The notes under the pieces were generated by a model. The model made no database searches and was not told the DNA's origin. It saw only the letters and a program-made list of their open reading frames with translations. Source: an uncultured Candidatus Saccharibacteria bacterium (GTDB lineage Bacteria > Patescibacteriota > Minisyncoccia > Phycocordibacterales > JACOZG01). From it: a stretch of 64,000 nt of DNA. A program made the position numbers and the translations under genes. This document shows, one piece after another, positions 6,022-14,542 of this stretch. The stretch spans positions 68,360 through 132,359 of the forward strand of contig OZ246403.1 of NCBI GenBank assembly GCA_965230925.1, given 5' to 3'. How positions within the stretch are numbered: position 1 is the first letter of the stretch; each line of letters begins with the position of its first letter.

Positions 6022-6441
6022 ATGAAGAAAGTGGTCGTTGCATCCCTATTCGCAATGATTGCGATGTGGTATGCAGGAGGAGAGTCTCGGGCGAACCCGA
6101 ACTCTTGTTGCCAGTGTCATCAGGCCATGGAGGCCCCCGTTGCTTTGCAACCGGTACCAATAACTGCATACGAGCAGTTGACGGTTCTGGTCGTGAACAA
6201 TGGGAACGGAAGTGGAGAAAAAGTCATCTTGCCCAACGATGCGTCGAACGATTTCGGCGCAACCGACAGGCAAGTTGCCCTACCGCCCCTTTCCGCCGCC
6301 AATGGTAATAATGACACTGGAAACTGGTTACTCGCTATTACGTCACGCCACTGCGTCGTGACCAGCGAGATCCGAGAGGGGGTGTTTCGCCTAATTTGGC
6401 GAGCACTCATCGTTTTGCCGCAGCAACGCGGCGATCCGTAG
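6022..6441 (+). CDS. Hypothetical exported protein with a CCQCH (CXXCH-like) motif, in a GC-rich segment
   Basis: RBS GGAGG upstream, a signal-peptide-like N-terminus, and a CXXCH-type motif (SCCQCHQ). The antisense ORF 6120..6461 is the alternative reading, so strand assignment is uncertain. Confidence 0.35.
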   Translation: MKKVVVASLFAMIAMWYAGGESRANPNSCCQCHQAMEAPVALQPVPITAYEQLTVLVVNNGNGSGEKVILPNDASNDFGATDRQVALPPLSAANGNNDTGNWLLAITSRHCVVTSEIREGVFRLIWRALIVLPQQRGDP

Positions 6442-8993: not shown

Positions 8994-9470
8994 ATGAGTT
9001 GGAATACACGGCTTGTTTCTGATCAAGTGCTTATTGTCCCAGAAACTGATGGGACCAAGACTATCTTGGATGCGCGAGATGTTTTTCTGGCAGGGATTAG
9101 CTCTAATTTTCAGGAATGGGGTTGCTGCATCACAGGAACGCCAACACCACAGGTTCCAGCGGAAGCTCGTTTCTTAGTCGAAAGTGCAACATTTGAAGAA
9201 ATCTTCGACATAGAACTTGCTGGCCGGTTCTGGACTTCCACTGACCAAATCACGAAGTTTGTGACCTGCAACCGAAATTGGATGTGGGATGATCGGGGTG
9301 GTGACAAAGTATTTCCTCTCATAATTTGGGGGAAAAAGTTTATTGCCAGCGCTTACTATCGGGCTGACGGTCGGCTTGGAGCCCACCTCCTCGATTTTGT
9401 TAACGAGCGTGTTTGGCATTCCAGGCAACGCCGTCGGTTCATTGTTCCACAACCGGCTGTCGTTCAGTAG
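8994..9470 (+). CDS. Hypothetical protein with no recognisable domain
   Basis: Strong RBS and its own promoter. It sits between rpe and tkt. Confidence 0.5.
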   Translation: MSWNTRLVSDQVLIVPETDGTKTILDARDVFLAGISSNFQEWGCCITGTPTPQVPAEARFLVESATFEEIFDIELAGRFWTSTDQITKFVTCNRNWMWDDRGGDKVFPLIIWGKKFIASAYYRADGRLGAHLLDFVNERVWHSRQRRRFIVPQPAVVQ

Positions 9471-9496
9471 CCTAATCCCAAGTGTTTGCTTTTATA

Positions 9497-9537
9497 ATCC
9501 CCTGGATCAACAGATCTAGGGGATTTTCATTTTTTGA
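9497..9537 (+). terminator. Rho-independent terminator
   Basis: atcccct at 9497-9503 pairs with aggggat at 9518-9524, followed by tttcatttttt. Confidence 0.6.
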
Positions 9538-9551
9538 TCATGATATAATAA

Positions 9552-10433
9552 ATGCACTTCATCATGCCCCATCTTCACGACGAGAAAATTAAGTTTTTGG
9601 AACAAAAGGCGAATGATATTCGTCGCTCGATCATTGAGATGCTGGTGGCTGCAGGTTCTGGTCACACGGCGGGGCCCTTGGGTATGGCCGATATTTTCAC
9701 CGCGCTCTATTTTCATCTTTTAAATCACGATCCTAAGCGACCAAATTGGGACGATCGCGACAGAGTGATTCTCTCTAATGGTCACATTTGCCCCGTGCTC
9801 TACGCCACGATGGCGCATGCCGGGTACTTCCCTGTGGAAGAACTCAAGACATTGCGCCGCTTCGGTTCTCGGCTCCAGGGTCATCCTCATCGTGAGTGGT
9901 TGCCCGCGCTTGAGACCAGTTCTGGTCCGCTTGGTTCTGGCCTTTCGCAAGCGGTGGGCATGGCGCTCGCTGAGCGTATCGATCGCGGCCGCGCTTCAGA
10001 TAAATTTTTCTATTGTCTCATGAGCGACGGCGAGTTCGATGCTGGGAATACTTGGGAGGGGATCTTGCTCGCGGGTAAAGAATCACTACACAATCTCATT
10101 GCGATCGTTGATCGCAATAATATTCAGATCGACGGCTTTACCGAGGACATCATGCCGCTTGAGCCGTTTAAGGCCAAGCTCGAGGCCTTCAACTGGCAGG
10201 TGCTCGAGATCGATGGTCACAACTTCGAGCAAATTAGTGATGCTGTCGGCCGAGCGAAGGCAGTGTTTAATAATCCCTCGATCATCATCGCTAACACCAT
10301 TCCCGGCAAAGGTGTGGCTGAATTTGAGCGCAAAGTTGAGTGGCACGGCAAACCACCAAATAAAGACGAAGCCAAAAACGCTTTGCATGAACTAAGGACG
10401 CTTTGGGGAAAGGTAAAGAGTGAGCATGAGTAA
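9552..10433 (+). CDS. tkt: Transketolase, N-terminal subunit (split transketolase)
   Basis: TPP-binding N-terminal motifs (GSGHTAGPLGMADI...SNGHICPVLYA), 293 aa with no C-terminal half. Confidence 0.9.
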   Translation: MHFIMPHLHDEKIKFLEQKANDIRRSIIEMLVAAGSGHTAGPLGMADIFTALYFHLLNHDPKRPNWDDRDRVILSNGHICPVLYATMAHAGYFPVEELKTLRRFGSRLQGHPHREWLPALETSSGPLGSGLSQAVGMALAERIDRGRASDKFFYCLMSDGEFDAGNTWEGILLAGKESLHNLIAIVDRNNIQIDGFTEDIMPLEPFKAKLEAFNWQVLEIDGHNFEQISDAVGRAKAVFNNPSIIIANTIPGKGVAEFERKVEWHGKPPNKDEAKNALHELRTLWGKVKSEHE

Positions 10434-10677
10434 AAACCACATAATTATTAGTTGTATCTATTTAGCTGTCCTGTTAATGTTTTTCCTTCGCTCCACTCTT
10501 GAAAAAGCTGTCCCAGTTTCTATAATATTTTTGATCTTTTCTTTGGTTCTCATACTCAAAAAACGATTTCCTTATACAGCTTTTTCCTTAATAGTTTTTA
10601 TAATCTCTGTTTTACACGTAATTTTGTTCCCGCTACTTGCGGTGCTTATCATTTTTTCTGGTGGACCTGCGTTATAA
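10420..10677 (+). CDS. Small three-TM membrane protein, paralog 1 of 5
   Basis: 85 aa, three hydrophobic helices, and a KKRFPY loop between TM2 and TM3. AT-rich codons. It overlaps the tkt N-subunit stop by 14 nt. Confidence 0.5.
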   Translation: MSMSKNHIIISCIYLAVLLMFFLRSTLEKAVPVSIIFLIFSLVLILKKRFPYTAFSLIVFIISVLHVILFPLLAVLIIFSGGPAL

Positions 10678-10722
10678 TTGTACTTATAGTGATTAACTCA
10701 AACCAACAAGTGGCCACAATCG

Positions 10723-11064
10723 GTGCGGTTTATAAAAATCTACATGAGTAGCTCTAAACTAAAAAAGTTTTTTCACTTTACTAACACCAGAATGTCTTTG
10801 GCTATCTTGATTTTTGTTATCGGACTCATTTTGTTGTTAGGTTTATTGCCGCAAGCACTAAACGATCACGGCGGAGCAACAACCTCTTTGGGAGGCTTGT
10901 TTCTGGCTATTATTTTCTGGCCAGGAGCCGTTTTTATGAGTCTTGGTCAGGTTTTGTCCTTAGGTTTTATCTTTGCCCCTATAGCTTTTGTAGCCAGCGT
11001 TCTGTATTTTTACGCGTTGTCTTGTGTTTTCTGTAATCTTGTTTCTTATATAAAAAATAAATAA
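10723..11064 (+). CDS. Small three-TM membrane protein, paralog 2 of 5 (start uncertain; internal ATGs at 10744 and 10789)
   Basis: 113-aa ORF with three hydrophobic segments, in an AT-rich region. Confidence 0.45.
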   Translation: MRFIKIYMSSSKLKKFFHFTNTRMSLAILIFVIGLILLLGLLPQALNDHGGATTSLGGLFLAIIFWPGAVFMSLGQVLSLGFIFAPIAFVASVLYFYALSCVFCNLVSYIKNK

Positions 11065-11066
11065 TC

Positions 11067-11354
11067 ATGAGTAAGTTTCTTAAATTCGTCGAACTGTTAT
11101 CGGTTTCTTATTTTGCAATCTCAGCCCCAATACTCTTTTTGAGCTTGCGGCCAACGTTTTTCGATATTCTTTTTCCTAAGGTGATGTTGATTGGTGGTCC
11201 AATAAGTTTAATGATGACCCCCCCATTGATAATTTATTTTCAAAAACCACCCAAAATAAGGTGGCCCGCCGGATTTTCTCTAGCAACCGCTTCTATTATT
11301 AGTCTTTGCTTCTTGTTTTTCTTGGCGCTCCTTTGGTCGGTAGATTTAATTTAA
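11067..11354 (+). CDS. Small three-TM membrane protein, paralog 3 of 5
   Basis: 95 aa, MSKFLKF N-terminus, QKPPKIRWP loop between TM2 and TM3. Confidence 0.5.
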   Translation: MSKFLKFVELLSVSYFAISAPILFLSLRPTFFDILFPKVMLIGGPISLMMTPPLIIYFQKPPKIRWPAGFSLATASIISLCFLFFLALLWSVDLI

Positions 11355-11406
11355 AAAGTTAATCTCAGTCAGTAGTTTCAACTTCGTGATATCATTTTAA
11401 ACGAGC

Positions 11407-11697
11407 ATGAGTAAACTTAAGAAAATAAATTGGTGGATTAGTTTAGGTTTTCTTGTCGTGCTTGTTTCTTCGTTTCTGATTCCATATATTTTTCCTCTCG
11501 ATCTTTTGCCTTATCTGCTTGGCGTACTCCCATTCATTTGGATTCTATCTATTATTGATTTAATAAAACCACCAAGGTCTAAACTAGTAATTTTGGTAAT
11601 GATTTTAGCTGTAGTATTTTACCTTGTTCACGATACTCTATTTCATTGCGGCCTGTCCTGGGGAAAATTATTCGAAGAGGGTAAAATCTGCATTTAG
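11407..11697 (+). CDS. Small three-TM membrane protein, paralog 4 of 5
   Basis: 96 aa, MSKLKKI N-terminus, IKPPRSK loop between TM2 and TM3. Confidence 0.5.
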   Translation: MSKLKKINWWISLGFLVVLVSSFLIPYIFPLDLLPYLLGVLPFIWILSIIDLIKPPRSKLVILVMILAVVFYLVHDTLFHCGLSWGKLFEEGKICI

Positions 11698-11750
11698 AAG
11701 TTAACCCCAGGCGGTGAATTTTATTTTTTTGGTTGTGTTAAAATTTATAC

Positions 11751-12023
11751 ATGGTATTTATCGCGGTTTTATATTTGATTGGCTCTCTCGTAACCATCTT
11801 TAATTTTATTTCCGTACCACTTTTGGACCTTTCCTTTCCTAATGTAGTGGTAGCGCTAGTGGTTGGTTCGATTACTTTTACTGCTTCACCACTATTGCTC
11901 ATTGGAAGTCTAATCTCAATTTTCTACCTCAAGAAGAGGTCGCCATTATTTTTTGTTGTTATGGCAGTATCGCTTGTGATGTCGCTATTTTACATTTATT
12001 CTTTTTTGCGTCCGACATATTAA
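11751..12023 (+). CDS. Small three-TM membrane protein, paralog 5 of 5
   Basis: 90 aa, LKKRSP loop between TM2 and TM3. It ends 1 nt before the tkt C-subunit start. Confidence 0.5.
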   Translation: MVFIAVLYLIGSLVTIFNFISVPLLDLSFPNVVVALVVGSITFTASPLLLIGSLISIFYLKKRSPLFFVVMAVSLVMSLFYIYSFLRPTY

Positions 12024-12024
12024 A

Positions 12025-13011
12025 ATGCTCAACCCCAACCAACATTTAAATCCCAGACTTTTTGATCTGAATGTCGAGCAGGTGCCGATTCGGAAGGGTT
12101 TTGGCGAGGGATTACTCGCGGCGGCGGAGAAGGATGAACGGATTGTGGGCTTGTGCGCGGATCTTACGGAAAGTACGCAGATGCATTTGTTTCGGAATAA
12201 ATTCCCGAATCGCTTTGTGGAGATTGGTGTCGCGGAGCAAAATTTGGCCACTGTTGCCTCGGGCATGGCGGCGATGGGCAAGATCCCATTCTTGAGTTCT
12301 TACGCCATGTTTAGCCCGGGTCGGAATTGGGAGCAGATTCGCACGACGATTTGCTATAACGACCAAGATGTGAAGATTGTGGGCTCGCATGCTGGTGTTT
12401 CTGTTGGTCCCGATGGCGGTACGCACCAAGCGATTGAGGACATTGCGATTATGCGCGTGATCCCACGGATGACGGTGGTAGTGCCATGCGATACGATTGA
12501 GGCCAAGAAGGCGACCCTCGCGATTGCGGCTAAGCGCGGTGCCACTTACTTGCGCTTGGCGCGAGAGAAAACGCCAGTAATTACCACCGAAGATACACCC
12601 TTCGAGCTCGGTAAAGCCAATGTGCTCATGGACCCCGAAGACGCTCAAGTGGCGATCTTCGCTTGTGGTCAACCGGTTTACAATGCTCTTGTGGCGGCGA
12701 AAAAGTTAGATAAAGAGGGAATTAAAGTCGCGGTAATTAATTTACATACGATTAAACCACTTGATACGAAAACGATTTTACACTTTGCCAAAAAGGCGGG
12801 GAAAATTCTTACCGTCGAAGAACATCAGAAGCATAGCGGCATGGGCAGTGCCATCGCCGAATTTTTGGTAGAAAATTACCCAATCCCGATGGCCATCCTC
12901 GGCGTCAATGACGAATTCGGCCAAAGCGGCACTCCCGAGCAACTCGTGGAGCACTATGGTCTCGGTGTTGACTCAATTGTGGAGAAGACGAAGAGTTTAA
13001 CTAAGAATTAA
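12025..13011 (+). CDS. tkt: Transketolase, C-terminal subunit (pyrimidine-binding plus C-terminal domains)
   Basis: FGEGLLAAAEKDERIVGLCADL and EIGVAEQNLATVASGMA motifs, 328 aa. Confidence 0.9.
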   Translation: MLNPNQHLNPRLFDLNVEQVPIRKGFGEGLLAAAEKDERIVGLCADLTESTQMHLFRNKFPNRFVEIGVAEQNLATVASGMAAMGKIPFLSSYAMFSPGRNWEQIRTTICYNDQDVKIVGSHAGVSVGPDGGTHQAIEDIAIMRVIPRMTVVVPCDTIEAKKATLAIAAKRGATYLRLAREKTPVITTEDTPFELGKANVLMDPEDAQVAIFACGQPVYNALVAAKKLDKEGIKVAVINLHTIKPLDTKTILHFAKKAGKILTVEEHQKHSGMGSAIAEFLVENYPIPMAILGVNDEFGQSGTPEQLVEHYGLGVDSIVEKTKSLTKN

Positions 13012-14542
13012 TATCTGAAAGGTAGTCAGTGGGTAAGCCAACCGGAGGAAGTTGTTGGGAGAATTCTTTAGCTGATTCGATCCAATCTTCACCACCTGAA
13101 GCGGGGTAAATGATTGTTTTGTTGCCCAACAGTTGCTGGGTATTGTTGTCGCCCACCCAACGGGGGAAATAACTTTCCAGTTGTTGTAGGGCTTCGCTAG
13201 TAGAATAGGCTCTAAGACAACCAGCATAAGCACCATCTGGCTCTGGTGCGTCCCAACCGCAAGTTTCTGGGTCTGGTGCCGGGCCCCAGTCATGCATGAC
13301 CCACAAGTCTTCTACCACATTGTCTAAGCCAACGAAATCAACGGTTAAATTTCTGGCATTCTCGTCTAAGTCATTCCACCAATAGCGGGCGGCGGTACCA
13401 AGAATAAATTTAGAGTTAGGAACATTGTTTTTTACCACTTCCACCAGGGCGCGAGTCCAAGCAATGCGGTCTCGGCCGTCATTAGGCGCATAGTCGGGCA
13501 AAATCTCGGGCAACCACCACCAGAATTCAATATCTTGATTATTGGCCGCGGCGGCAAGAGGTTGGAGAGCAAGAGCAAGCGCCTGGTAATCAATGGGATA
13601 ATAGTCGAAGTTGTAGCCAGTGAGGTTGGTTTCATTTTCTAATACGATCTGTTTATTGCCCGTGTCTTCAGCAATGGCAATAGCGGCAGAAGCAATCGTT
13701 TGCCAAGCTGCGGCATTGGCAAAATCATAGAGAGGTGTACCACCAGTAGCTGGAGATATGGGCAAAGGCATGGCGGAAAGAGTTTTGATCCCGCCAATAA
13801 TTTCTAAACCAGGTGGTTTGCGATCATTTACTTCATTGTAAAAGTTGGTGTAGGCATATTCGTGGCGGGTGGTAAAAATTGTTCGATGAGACACTTTGGC
13901 GATATCGGGCAAGGCTTCCATGGCAAAGTCGAGCACATCCATCTCGGCGGTGGCCCCATCTTCTTCAGTATAAAATTCGGACGCTGGCCAGTCGGGCACA
14001 TTCACTTCCTTCCAAAAAATAAGTTCCGGCAAAACCTTAAGCGTAATAGTTCCGCGGTCAGTATTACCATCGCTATCGGTCACACGGAAGGTAAAGCTGT
14101 CGGTGCCCTTGAACCCCGCCTCCGGCGTATACGGTACGCGCGCTTCACGACCAAGTGACTGAATTACTCCCAAATGTCCATGACTTGGTTGCGTGCTGAT
14201 GGCAAAGGTCAAGTTGGGGTCGTCATCGTCATTGGCCTTCATGGTGAAAAGTAGGGTTTTCTCTTTTTGGGCTAAATAGCTGGAGTTCCTAGCTCTTGGC
14301 TTGAAGTCGGGCTCGGGAATTTCTGAAAGTGGGGGATTTTGATTTCCTGAATCACCGGAAGCAGAAAGTCTTTGTTCAATAGTCACCGTCGGTTCGACTT
14401 CGTCTACCAGCAAGAGCTTTGCCCCGCCCGAACGCGAGAGTTGATCGGAGAAAAAGAGCTGTTGCCCGACTACATAAAAGAAACCGAACGTTAGGACGAC
14501 GAGAAGCGACGCCAACAAGGTGGCTTTATCTTTCATTGACAC
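13001..14542 (-). CDS. Membrane-anchored exported protein with an Ig-like (cadherin/He_PIG-like) domain and a large uncharacterised C-terminal domain
   Basis: N-terminal TM segment (LLASLLVVLTFGFFYVV), an Ig-like block (FTFRVTDSDGNTDRGTITLKV), 513 aa. Confidence 0.6.
   Translation of the reverse strand: MSMKDKATLLASLLVVLTFGFFYVVGQQLFFSDQLSRSGGAKLLLVDEVEPTVTIEQRLSASGDSGNQNPPLSEIPEPDFKPRARNSSYLAQKEKTLLFTMKANDDDDPNLTFAISTQPSHGHLGVIQSLGREARVPYTPEAGFKGTDSFTFRVTDSDGNTDRGTITLKVLPELIFWKEVNVPDWPASEFYTEEDGATAEMDVLDFAMEALPDIAKVSHRTIFTTRHEYAYTNFYNEVNDRKPPGLEIIGGIKTLSAMPLPISPATGGTPLYDFANAAAWQTIASAAIAIAEDTGNKQIVLENETNLTGYNFDYYPIDYQALALALQPLAAAANNQDIEFWWWLPEILPDYAPNDGRDRIAWTRALVEVVKNNVPNSKFILGTAARYWWNDLDENARNLTVDFVGLDNVVEDLWVMHDWGPAPDPETCGWDAPEPDGAYAGCLRAYSTSEALQQLESYFPRWVGDNNTQQLLGNKTIIYPASGGEDWIESAKEFSQQLPPVGLPTDYLSDINS

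Follow-up and report, generated by a model that had tools for sequence, protein, structure and literature searches.

Five small membrane-protein genes between the halves of a split transketolase

The DNA analysed here, hereafter the window, is a stretch of 64,000 nucleotides (nt) from contig OZ246403.1 (GenBank assembly GCA_965230925.1, positions 68,360 to 132,359), in which an AT-rich insert at 10434–12024 separates the two halves of a split transketolase. The N-terminal, thiamine pyrophosphate-binding half (tktN; 9552–10433, + strand) was recognized by Pfam Transketolase_N (1.1e-62) and the C-terminal half (tktC; 12025–13011, + strand) by Transket_pyr (1.4e-39) and Transketolase_C (3.4e-30). 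Both are part of a pentose-phosphate operon with the gene order GAPDH (gap), RpiB, Rpe, a 158-amino-acid (aa) open reading frame (ORF), tktN, the insert, and tktC. As judged by protein identity, the source genome is an uncultured member of the Patescibacteria (Paceibacteria/Parcubacteria): tktN has 69–93% aa identity to 140 Paceibacteria loci, and the tkt proteins of many such metagenome-assembled genomes are 70–93% identical. A 90-kb Logan contig from SRR12816581 contains an identical copy of the region, a 716-kb NCBI contig likewise encodes the proteins, and related contigs stem from Hainich groundwater.

Five ORFs, termed m1 to m5, follow each other on the + strand of the insert. m1 (10426–10677, 83 aa; 85 aa from an alternative GTG at 10420) has approximately three hydrophobic segments and the basic loop KKRFPY; it begins within tktN, the two genes overlapping by 8 nt. 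m2 (10744–11064, 106 aa) has three long helices and a basic C-terminus; alternative starts are located at 10723 and 10792, and gene callers chose the ATG at 10792, which gives 90 aa. m3 (11067–11354, 95 aa), which starts 2 nt past the m2 stop, m4 (11407–11697, 96 aa), and m5 (11751–12023, 90 aa) have three transmembrane (TM) segments each and the loops QKPPKIRWP, IKPPRSK, and LKKRSP, respectively. m4 has an additional 22-aa C-terminal tail with two Cys. The N-terminus of m5 is not basic, and its stop codon is located 1 nt upstream of the tktC ATG.

The five ORFs are real beyond chance. They span 90% of the insert on the + strand, no ORF of at least 80 aa is present on its − strand, and five such ORFs did not arise in a single one of 2000 first-order Markov simulations run on the sequence (maximum three). 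Gene callers also recognized all five in independent assemblies (NCBI, Logan). The proportion of T at codon position 2 is 0.47–0.58, as hydrophobic coding predicts, and all are strongly hydrophobic with a grand average of hydropathy of 1.15–1.71 and approximately three hydrophobic segments in hydropathy analysis. Single-sequence AlphaFold models contain three long helices in m2 (residues 4–40, 45–71, and 74–104) and m4 (3–28, 34–53, and 57–80, followed by a short helix at 85–91), both with a predicted local distance difference test score of 71. For m1, m3, and m4, the positive-inside rule suggests an N-in, C-out topology with a cytoplasmic basic loop. The original prediction, made from the letters and translations of the DNA, had described five tightly packed, co-oriented ORFs with three TM helices each between the tkt halves, all of which is borne out. 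It had also given every ORF a basic, proline-containing loop between TM2 and TM3, which holds for four of the five but not for m2, and had attributed a shared MSK N-terminus to two ORFs, where we instead found an MS(K/S) start common to four (m1–m4).

With 35.6% G+C, the insert is the lowest-GC 1.6 kb of the window (mean 48.1%, standard deviation 2.0), compared to 48–51% in the flanks and the window. The low-GC island proposed earlier is thus confirmed, but not its G+C content of approximately 30%. Third codon positions deviate as well, with a G+C content at third codon positions (GC3) of 0.31–0.41 in the insert ORFs versus 0.57 in tkt. The only other strongly hydrophobic gene of the window encodes a 256-aa ZIP-like membrane protein and has a G+C content of 0.48; the low G+C of the insert is therefore not explained by hydrophobicity alone.

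The tktN–tktC boundary is a lineage-wide insertion hotspot

We gathered 160 related loci, of which 140 contain both tkt halves. In 72 of these 140, fewer than 80 nt separate the halves, which often overlap or lie 1–8 nt apart, and 67 have inserts of 150–2908 nt. G+C content of the gap is below that of the locus in nearly all relatives with inserts of at least 150 nt, and gap ORFs are mostly in operon orientation (109 on the + strand versus 9 on the − strand). The closest relative (L082/L007; tkt proteins approximately 90% and DNA 83% identical) has a HigB/HigA-like pair and no membrane ORF in its gap. DNA homology of the window to L082 ends exactly at the tktN stop (10433) and restarts at 12031, in codon 3 of tktC. 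Two other relatives, L061 and L074, share 86% DNA identity through tktN and the first gap gene, none across the membrane ORF, and 74% in tktC. Gap cargo recognizable by Pfam consists of Gp49/HigB-like genes with helix-turn-helix antitoxin genes (seven pairs), MazG-like (n = 4), DUF1653 (n = 3), HepT (n = 2, one beside an MNT-type nucleotidyltransferase), and PemK (n = 2) genes, as well as NUDIX, HD, and others, and is typical of addiction and defence islets. With the same flanking genes, content that varies across loci, and cargo of deviant composition, the tktN–tktC boundary is a lineage-wide hotspot and not the site of a one-off event. Insertion between two normally adjacent genes, as originally predicted, is hence the right interpretation of the locus but too narrow a one.

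Three loci (L001, L003, and L069), two of which are among the closest by tktN identity (80–83%), have no tktC within 6 kb downstream of tktN. In L001, tktN is followed by an antitoxin/toxin-like pair and then aspS, scpA, and scpB. The tkt halves can therefore separate fully, or tktC can be lost.

Membrane proteins are a preferred cargo of the hotspot. Among small ORFs (60–200 aa), 41% are strongly hydrophobic in gaps compared to 10% in flanks (odds ratio 6.5, p = 2e-13). Approximately three hydrophobic segments were found in 28 of the 43 distinct gap TM ORFs, whose median length is 109 aa. A single ORF of this kind is present in 26 loci and two are present in six, whereas five occur only in the genome studied here. 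The AT skew is −0.19 in the TM ORFs (T-skewed) versus +0.04 in non-coding gap DNA. Since the latter has no T skew, hydrophobic coding is a property of the genes and not of the spacer. The gap membrane ORFs are mutually unrelated by detection, save for one small subfamily. Members of this subfamily, which is unrelated to m1–m5, mostly have two to three hydrophobic segments, an N-terminal (N/K)TKRYWL, and a C-terminal GWLYGKIKNRK (L061:7247–7600, L074:7258–7554, L077:7870–8223, L109:7209–7508, L116:7441–7740, L110:5887–6159, and L009:7976–8080).

Relics of the tktN 3′ end at mini-ORF starts

tktN ends with a conserved tail (GTAAAGAGTGAGCATGAGTAA; 10413–10433, + strand) that encodes ...K-V-K-S-E-H-E-stop and contains the start codon of m1 (ATG at 10426). 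In most loci tktN ends with K-I/V-K-S-E-H-E-stop; a tail of the form K-I-K-S-E-H-E/Q-stop is kept in 110 of the 140 loci, and the resident tail is the top match of the tail position weight matrix (PWM) in the window (score 24.5). The end codons CAT GAG/GAA TAA contain an ATG in the +2 frame. Relatives use this embedded ATG (−7) as well: no fewer than eight unrelated ORFs, each the first in its gap, start there, and five of these are strongly hydrophobic. MSK and MNK N-termini result from this overlap, because ATG AGT AAn is the frame-shifted reading of C-ATG-AGT-AA.

Decayed copies of the tail are found at the starts of m2, m3, and m4. The relic at m2 (10735–10750, + strand) reads AAAATCT--ACATGAGTA, compared to AAA TCT GAA CAT GAG TA in other lineages, and the one at m3 (11054–11074, + strand) reads AAAATAAATA---ATCATGAGTAA. 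The relic at m4 (11397–11414, + strand; TTAA-A-CGAGCATGAGTAA) is the second-best PWM match on the + strand and includes a 13-mer, GAGCATGAGTAAA, that is identical to the resident tail and occurs in the window only at 10422 and 11403, i.e., at the tktN end and the m4 start. At m2 and m4, the match to the tail also covers nucleotides upstream of the ATG. In gapped alignments of the 33 nt around each start to the tktN tails of 110 relatives, 8, 26, and 1 of 1200 random ATG-centred sites scored as high as m2, m3, and m4, respectively (p ~0.007, 0.02, and 0.001), whereas the tktC start was unremarkable. Three of the four occurrences of the 9-mer CATGAGTAA on both strands of the window are at the starts of m1, m3, and m4, and CATGAGTA is also present at the m2 start. 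None of the 41 long genes of the window starts with ATGAGTAA, as opposed to three of the five mini-ORFs. The three internal ORFs thus have relics of their own with different synonymous codons, which argues for separate additions and against acquisition as a single cassette, as had been suggested by the original prediction.

The same signature was detected in relatives. The tail core motif is approximately 48-fold enriched in the interior of their gaps (five in 50 kb versus three in 1445 kb of flanks), and four of the five gap-interior motifs run directly into a hydrophobic ORF (L004, L087 twice, and L129). The ORFs of the two units of tail and TM ORF in L087 are unrelated to each other. L087 (5684–8035) was also observed to contain three tktN-tail copies, one duplicate of the tktC head, and a 40-nt repeat of what follows the tktN stop. 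This layout resembles the product of a Campbell-type integration in which the entire gap region was inserted a second time from a circularised copy. A HepT-like ORF of this locus ends with …LLGKIKSEHE, a tail copy that was absorbed as its C-terminus.

Duplicated fragments of the tktC 5′ end (approximately 26 codons) are present in nine of 66 insert-bearing loci (L009, L017, L036, L039, L040, L060, L087, L152, and L157), with z-scores of 6.7–35 versus shuffles, and most end with PIRKGF/W. Recombination or integration may thus be favoured at a point approximately 80 nt into tktC. A candidate tktC 5′ duplicate in the window itself, a 25-nt match at 10684–10708, was rejected as not significant, as 93 of 300 shuffles scored as high. 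A conserved GC-rich element of approximately 105 nt was observed in L036 (7277–7381), L040 (7627–7731), L039 (8388–8492), and L157 (8060–8164), where it follows the duplicated tktC 5′ fragment and precedes the real tktC start by approximately 180 nt. It has a three-hairpin fold with compensatory changes at 10 of 30 pairs and no Rfam match, and its covariance model retrieved more copies on both strands, e.g., in L124 (2486–2576, 79 bits), L073, and the tkt gaps of L033 and L152. The element looks like a dispersed structured element similar to miniature inverted-repeat transposable elements (MITE) or repetitive extragenic palindromic (REP) sequences.

Relatedness of the mini-ORFs and alternative origins

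No relationship was detected among the five mini-ORFs. The best of their ten pairwise Smith–Waterman scores versus composition-preserving shuffles had a z of 2.4 (m3–m5) and all others had at most 1.65, an alignment with MAFFT showed no paralogy, and Tandem Repeats Finder reported no DNA tandem repeat in the region. Searches of m1–m5 with phmmer against 8208 ORFs of the related loci and reversed decoys yielded only one marginal pair, m4 and the first gap ORF of L009 (E 0.002–0.017), and an iterated hidden Markov model (HMM) built from m4 and this ORF (L009_6899) recruited no further members. The paralog expansion proposed at the outset is therefore not supported. True paralogues could still have arisen in situ if one unit of tail and three-TM ORF had been tandemly duplicated from a left breakpoint within the 3′ end of tktN and the copies had then diverged beyond recognition under diversifying selection. 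A duplication spanning the ORF start necessarily copies part of the tktN tail and would explain the relics, of which that of m4 matches the resident tail over 13 nt. Four of the five ORFs share a basic N-terminus, three TM segments, and a basic proline-containing loop, and the site changes fast, as illustrated by the TM ORF of L061 and L074 with approximately 35% aa identity beside a neighbouring ORF with 97% identity. This origin is, however, difficult to reconcile with the missing pairwise similarity and tandem repeat, with relics that are better kept than the ORF bodies, with an m2 relic that differs from the resident tail in Ser codon family and stop codon, and with the unrelated ORFs behind separate tail copies in L087, and we regard it as unlikely.

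The mini-ORFs are orphans in all collections searched. Each forms a singleton cluster at 90% clustering. m2 and m4 matched only themselves among 5.8e9 proteins (word index), and m3 matched only itself among 1.84e9 representatives (full HMMER scan) besides one eukaryotic sushi-repeat protein, which was rejected as a spurious repeat match. m1 and m5 were tested by cluster look-up and against the local ORF set and family libraries. Sequence searches of m1–m5 in Pfam, PHROGs, PADLOC, NCBIfam, and PDB gave nothing significant, with zero matches to PADLOC defence models at E ≤0.1. Foldseek with the m4 model retrieved nothing but generic membrane proteins with three helices, all with E above 3. A relationship to Mrp small subunits (MrpC/F/G-like) was considered and rejected (Foldseek E 5.6–8.4; non-significant TM-scores of 0.55–0.61; no Pfam match; neither MrpA nor MrpD nearby). 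We found no paper on the tkt-junction hotspot or on these proteins.

Orphan status in collections of 5.8e9 and 1.84e9 proteins is also what would be expected of de novo proto-genes, i.e., AT-rich spacer that is translated by means of the tktN-embedded ATG and coupling into tolerated three-helix peptides of little or no function. The low G+C and GC3 and the use of the embedded ATG by at least eight unrelated ORFs in relatives are consistent with such an origin, and in yeast, thymine-rich DNA is documented to have given rise to membrane peptides (PMC7005711). On the other hand, non-coding gap DNA of the relatives is not T-rich (AT skew +0.04), ORFs of 83–106 aa in DNA of 36% G+C are far beyond chance length, and a syntenic precursor without coding capacity was not found, the closest available relative (approximately 83% nt identity in tkt) having a toxin–antitoxin pair in this place. 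We thus consider gene birth from spacer a rather improbable source of the array.

Five co-oriented hydrophobic ORFs with only 1–66 nt between them might also be the wreck of a single large multi-pass membrane gene, such as a transporter gene, that was broken by frameshifts or stops, and large membrane proteins are indeed encoded in some relatives' gaps (L144, 613 aa; L110, 345 aa). Against this, no fragment matches a Pfam or NCBIfam membrane family even at E 0.1 to 1, the phmmer searches against the 8208 ORFs of related loci were empty in this respect, several stop codons separate m1 and m2 in a shared frame, and m2–m4 each have their own ATG behind a tail relic, which makes a wrecked gene very improbable.

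Toxin immunity, holin, and phage-exclusion proteins had been named as candidate functions. In size and three-TM topology the mini-ORFs are like class I holins, and the deviant composition of the insert would fit a phage remnant carrying holin or superinfection-exclusion genes. They have no PHROGs and no Pfam holin match, and five scans of IMG/VR revealed no relatives; four IMG/VR matches of m4 were discarded as artefacts that are out of frame within real genes. No lysin, integrase, or other phage gene is present within 8 kb on either side, and the C-termini of m1–m5 are hydrophobic or weakly charged, so that the highly charged C-terminal tail is absent. We know of no precedent for five holins in a row. 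The holin assignment is contradicted by this context and a phage remnant is largely refuted, and none of the libraries searched (Pfam, PHROGs, PADLOC, NCBIfam, and PDB) supports immunity or phage-exclusion roles. Genes for a toxin, a bacteriocin, or a secretion system, beside which strings of immunity genes would be expected, do not adjoin the array.

Putative stepwise filling of the hotspot

Our preferred reading, to which we assign a probability of roughly 0.58, is that the hotspot was filled stepwise by unrelated units, each consisting of a tktN tail plus a mini-ORF, that are expressed from the operon. Accessory genes would enter the tktN–tktC boundary by recombination and in operon orientation. 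Because m2, m3, and m4 each begin with a decayed tail copy, each would once have been such a unit, and the array may have grown by successive unit additions, most likely imported from relatives through recombination in the conserved tkt ends, and not by a single transfer or recent tandem duplication. A possible route is the single-crossover integration of a circularised fragment, which would leave a tail copy on either side of the newcomer. The tail relics suggest, without being proof, that new units are added at the tktN-proximal end. The mini-ORFs would be co-transcribed with the pentose-phosphate operon; m1 is probably translationally coupled to tktN via the embedded ATG, and m3 (2 nt past m2) and tktC (1 nt past m5) are perhaps coupled as well.

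Several observations weigh against stepwise filling by imported units. The start of m5 has no relic (score 17, equalled by 428 of 1200 random sites). The relics score higher with foreign than with the resident tail (26 versus 16 for m2, 24 versus 18 for m3, and 28 versus 24 for m4), but the foreign score is the best of 110 tails and this preference is suggestive, not decisive. Since the searches yielded neither a donor nor a homologue for any of m1–m5, the argument for import from relatives consists of relics of 9–20 nt. The available copies of the array are all identical, hence no ratio of non-synonymous to synonymous substitutions (dN/dS) is computable. Finally, the architecture of three TM segments and a basic loop recurs, which could instead mean one very fast-evolving family.

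As to function, a fast-turnover role in conflict or at the envelope, for example in protection against membrane-targeting toxins or phage, may be favoured over others, because the other cargo of the slot consists of toxin–antitoxin and nucleotide hydrolase genes and turnover is rapid. This assignment by analogy is doubtful: it relies on guilt-by-association, no toxin, phage, or defence partner adjoins the array, and PADLOC and PHROGs returned nothing.

Genomic context

The 8 kb of DNA on either flank of the insert encode MurB, an amino-acid kinase, GatB, GAPDH, RpiB, Rpe, tkt, a Big_9 protein, glycosyltransferases, and glycoside hydrolases; the neighbours of the array are genes of pentose-phosphate and glycogen metabolism, and no integrase or recombinase gene is among them. 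The tkt–insert region shows no excess of terminators, and known RNAs or tRNAs are absent from 9000–13500. Only eight of 41 long genes in the window are preceded by a Shine–Dalgarno-like motif, so that missing motifs of this type at the mini-ORFs carry no meaning. Many long genes (e.g., those starting at 9552, 30202, 35512, and 55557) have a TATAAT-like box a few nt upstream of the ATG (tgatataataaATG at tktN), which together with the rarity of Shine–Dalgarno motifs suggests that mRNAs with a short leader or none are widespread in this genome.

The 158-aa ORF between rpe and tktN (8994–9470, + strand) has no Pfam family and no detected DNA homology in L082, L084, and L004. A 139-aa ORF of the same operon (6022–6441, + strand) is also without Pfam family. 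Downstream, a gene at 13001–14542 (− strand) converges on tktC with an 11-nt 3′ overlap; its 513-aa product is a secreted or anchored protein and has Big_9 and cadherin-like domains. In L082, the DNA from tktC to the next common gene is approximately 600 nt shorter, so that this is probably a second variable spot.

Significance and comparison with known systems

Patescibacteria, or Candidate Phyla Radiation bacteria, have tiny genomes and their routes of gene gain are little known. Here, accessory genes repeatedly enter a compact slot within an essential operon of sugar metabolism, preferentially those of orphan three-helix membrane proteins, and the membrane genes in the slot borrow a start codon from the enzyme gene upstream of them. 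If true, stepwise, homology-driven capture would be a simple, recombinase-free way to build gene arrays, and the tkt slot is a tractable site for studying how genes are captured or born in an uncultured lineage. In practical terms, the gain is a modest one, namely a searchable signature consisting of a "KSEHE-stop relic" followed by a mini-ORF.

Like the de novo membrane proto-genes of yeast (PMC7005711), the ORFs of the tkt array are orphan, short, TM-rich, and AT-rich, but they are located in a bacterial operon and non-coding DNA nearby is not T-rich. In staphylococci, strings of small membrane immunity genes (tsaI) adjoin the gene of the type VII secretion system toxin TspA (PMC9484751). 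The two have in common adjacent genes for small polytopic membrane proteins and rapid, recombination-driven turnover, whereas tsaI genes are recognizable paralogues beside a toxin and secretion locus and the tkt array has neither detectable paralogy nor a toxin neighbour.

Integron cassette arrays likewise consist of short, promoter-less ORFs in one orientation beside a fixed expression platform, with a copy of the junction per unit. Unlike in integrons, no IntI is encoded within 8 kb, and the junction repeat at tkt is a relic of the 3′ end of a housekeeping gene. Convincing attC-like or flanking repeats were not found in the array, which has six short inverted repeats (14–18 nt, 78–93% complementary) in irregular placement. 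One may speculate that the junction acts as an integrase-free, integron-like platform for capture and expression, in which the operon provides transcription and the tktN codons a start and coupled ribosomes, and that units are exchanged between lineages and stacked into a fast-turnover repertoire of three-TM proteins for conflict with phages, competitors, or the host cell; we hold this extended scenario to be improbable as a whole.

The closest parallels are accessory and defence hotspots flanked by core genes, such as the core defence hotspots (cDHS) of Pseudomonas aeruginosa (PMC10250203) and the defence-island hotspots of E. coli (PMC10121019). As in these, the same conserved gene pair flanks variable, low-GC cargo that includes toxin–antitoxin and nucleotide hydrolase genes, and many of the sites are without an integrase of their own. 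The tkt hotspot differs in that its flanks are two halves of one enzyme in one operon, that its inserts are tiny (0.15–2.9 kb), nearly all co-oriented (109 versus 9), and carry duplicated ends of the flanking genes, and that orphan three-TM mini-proteins dominate the cargo.

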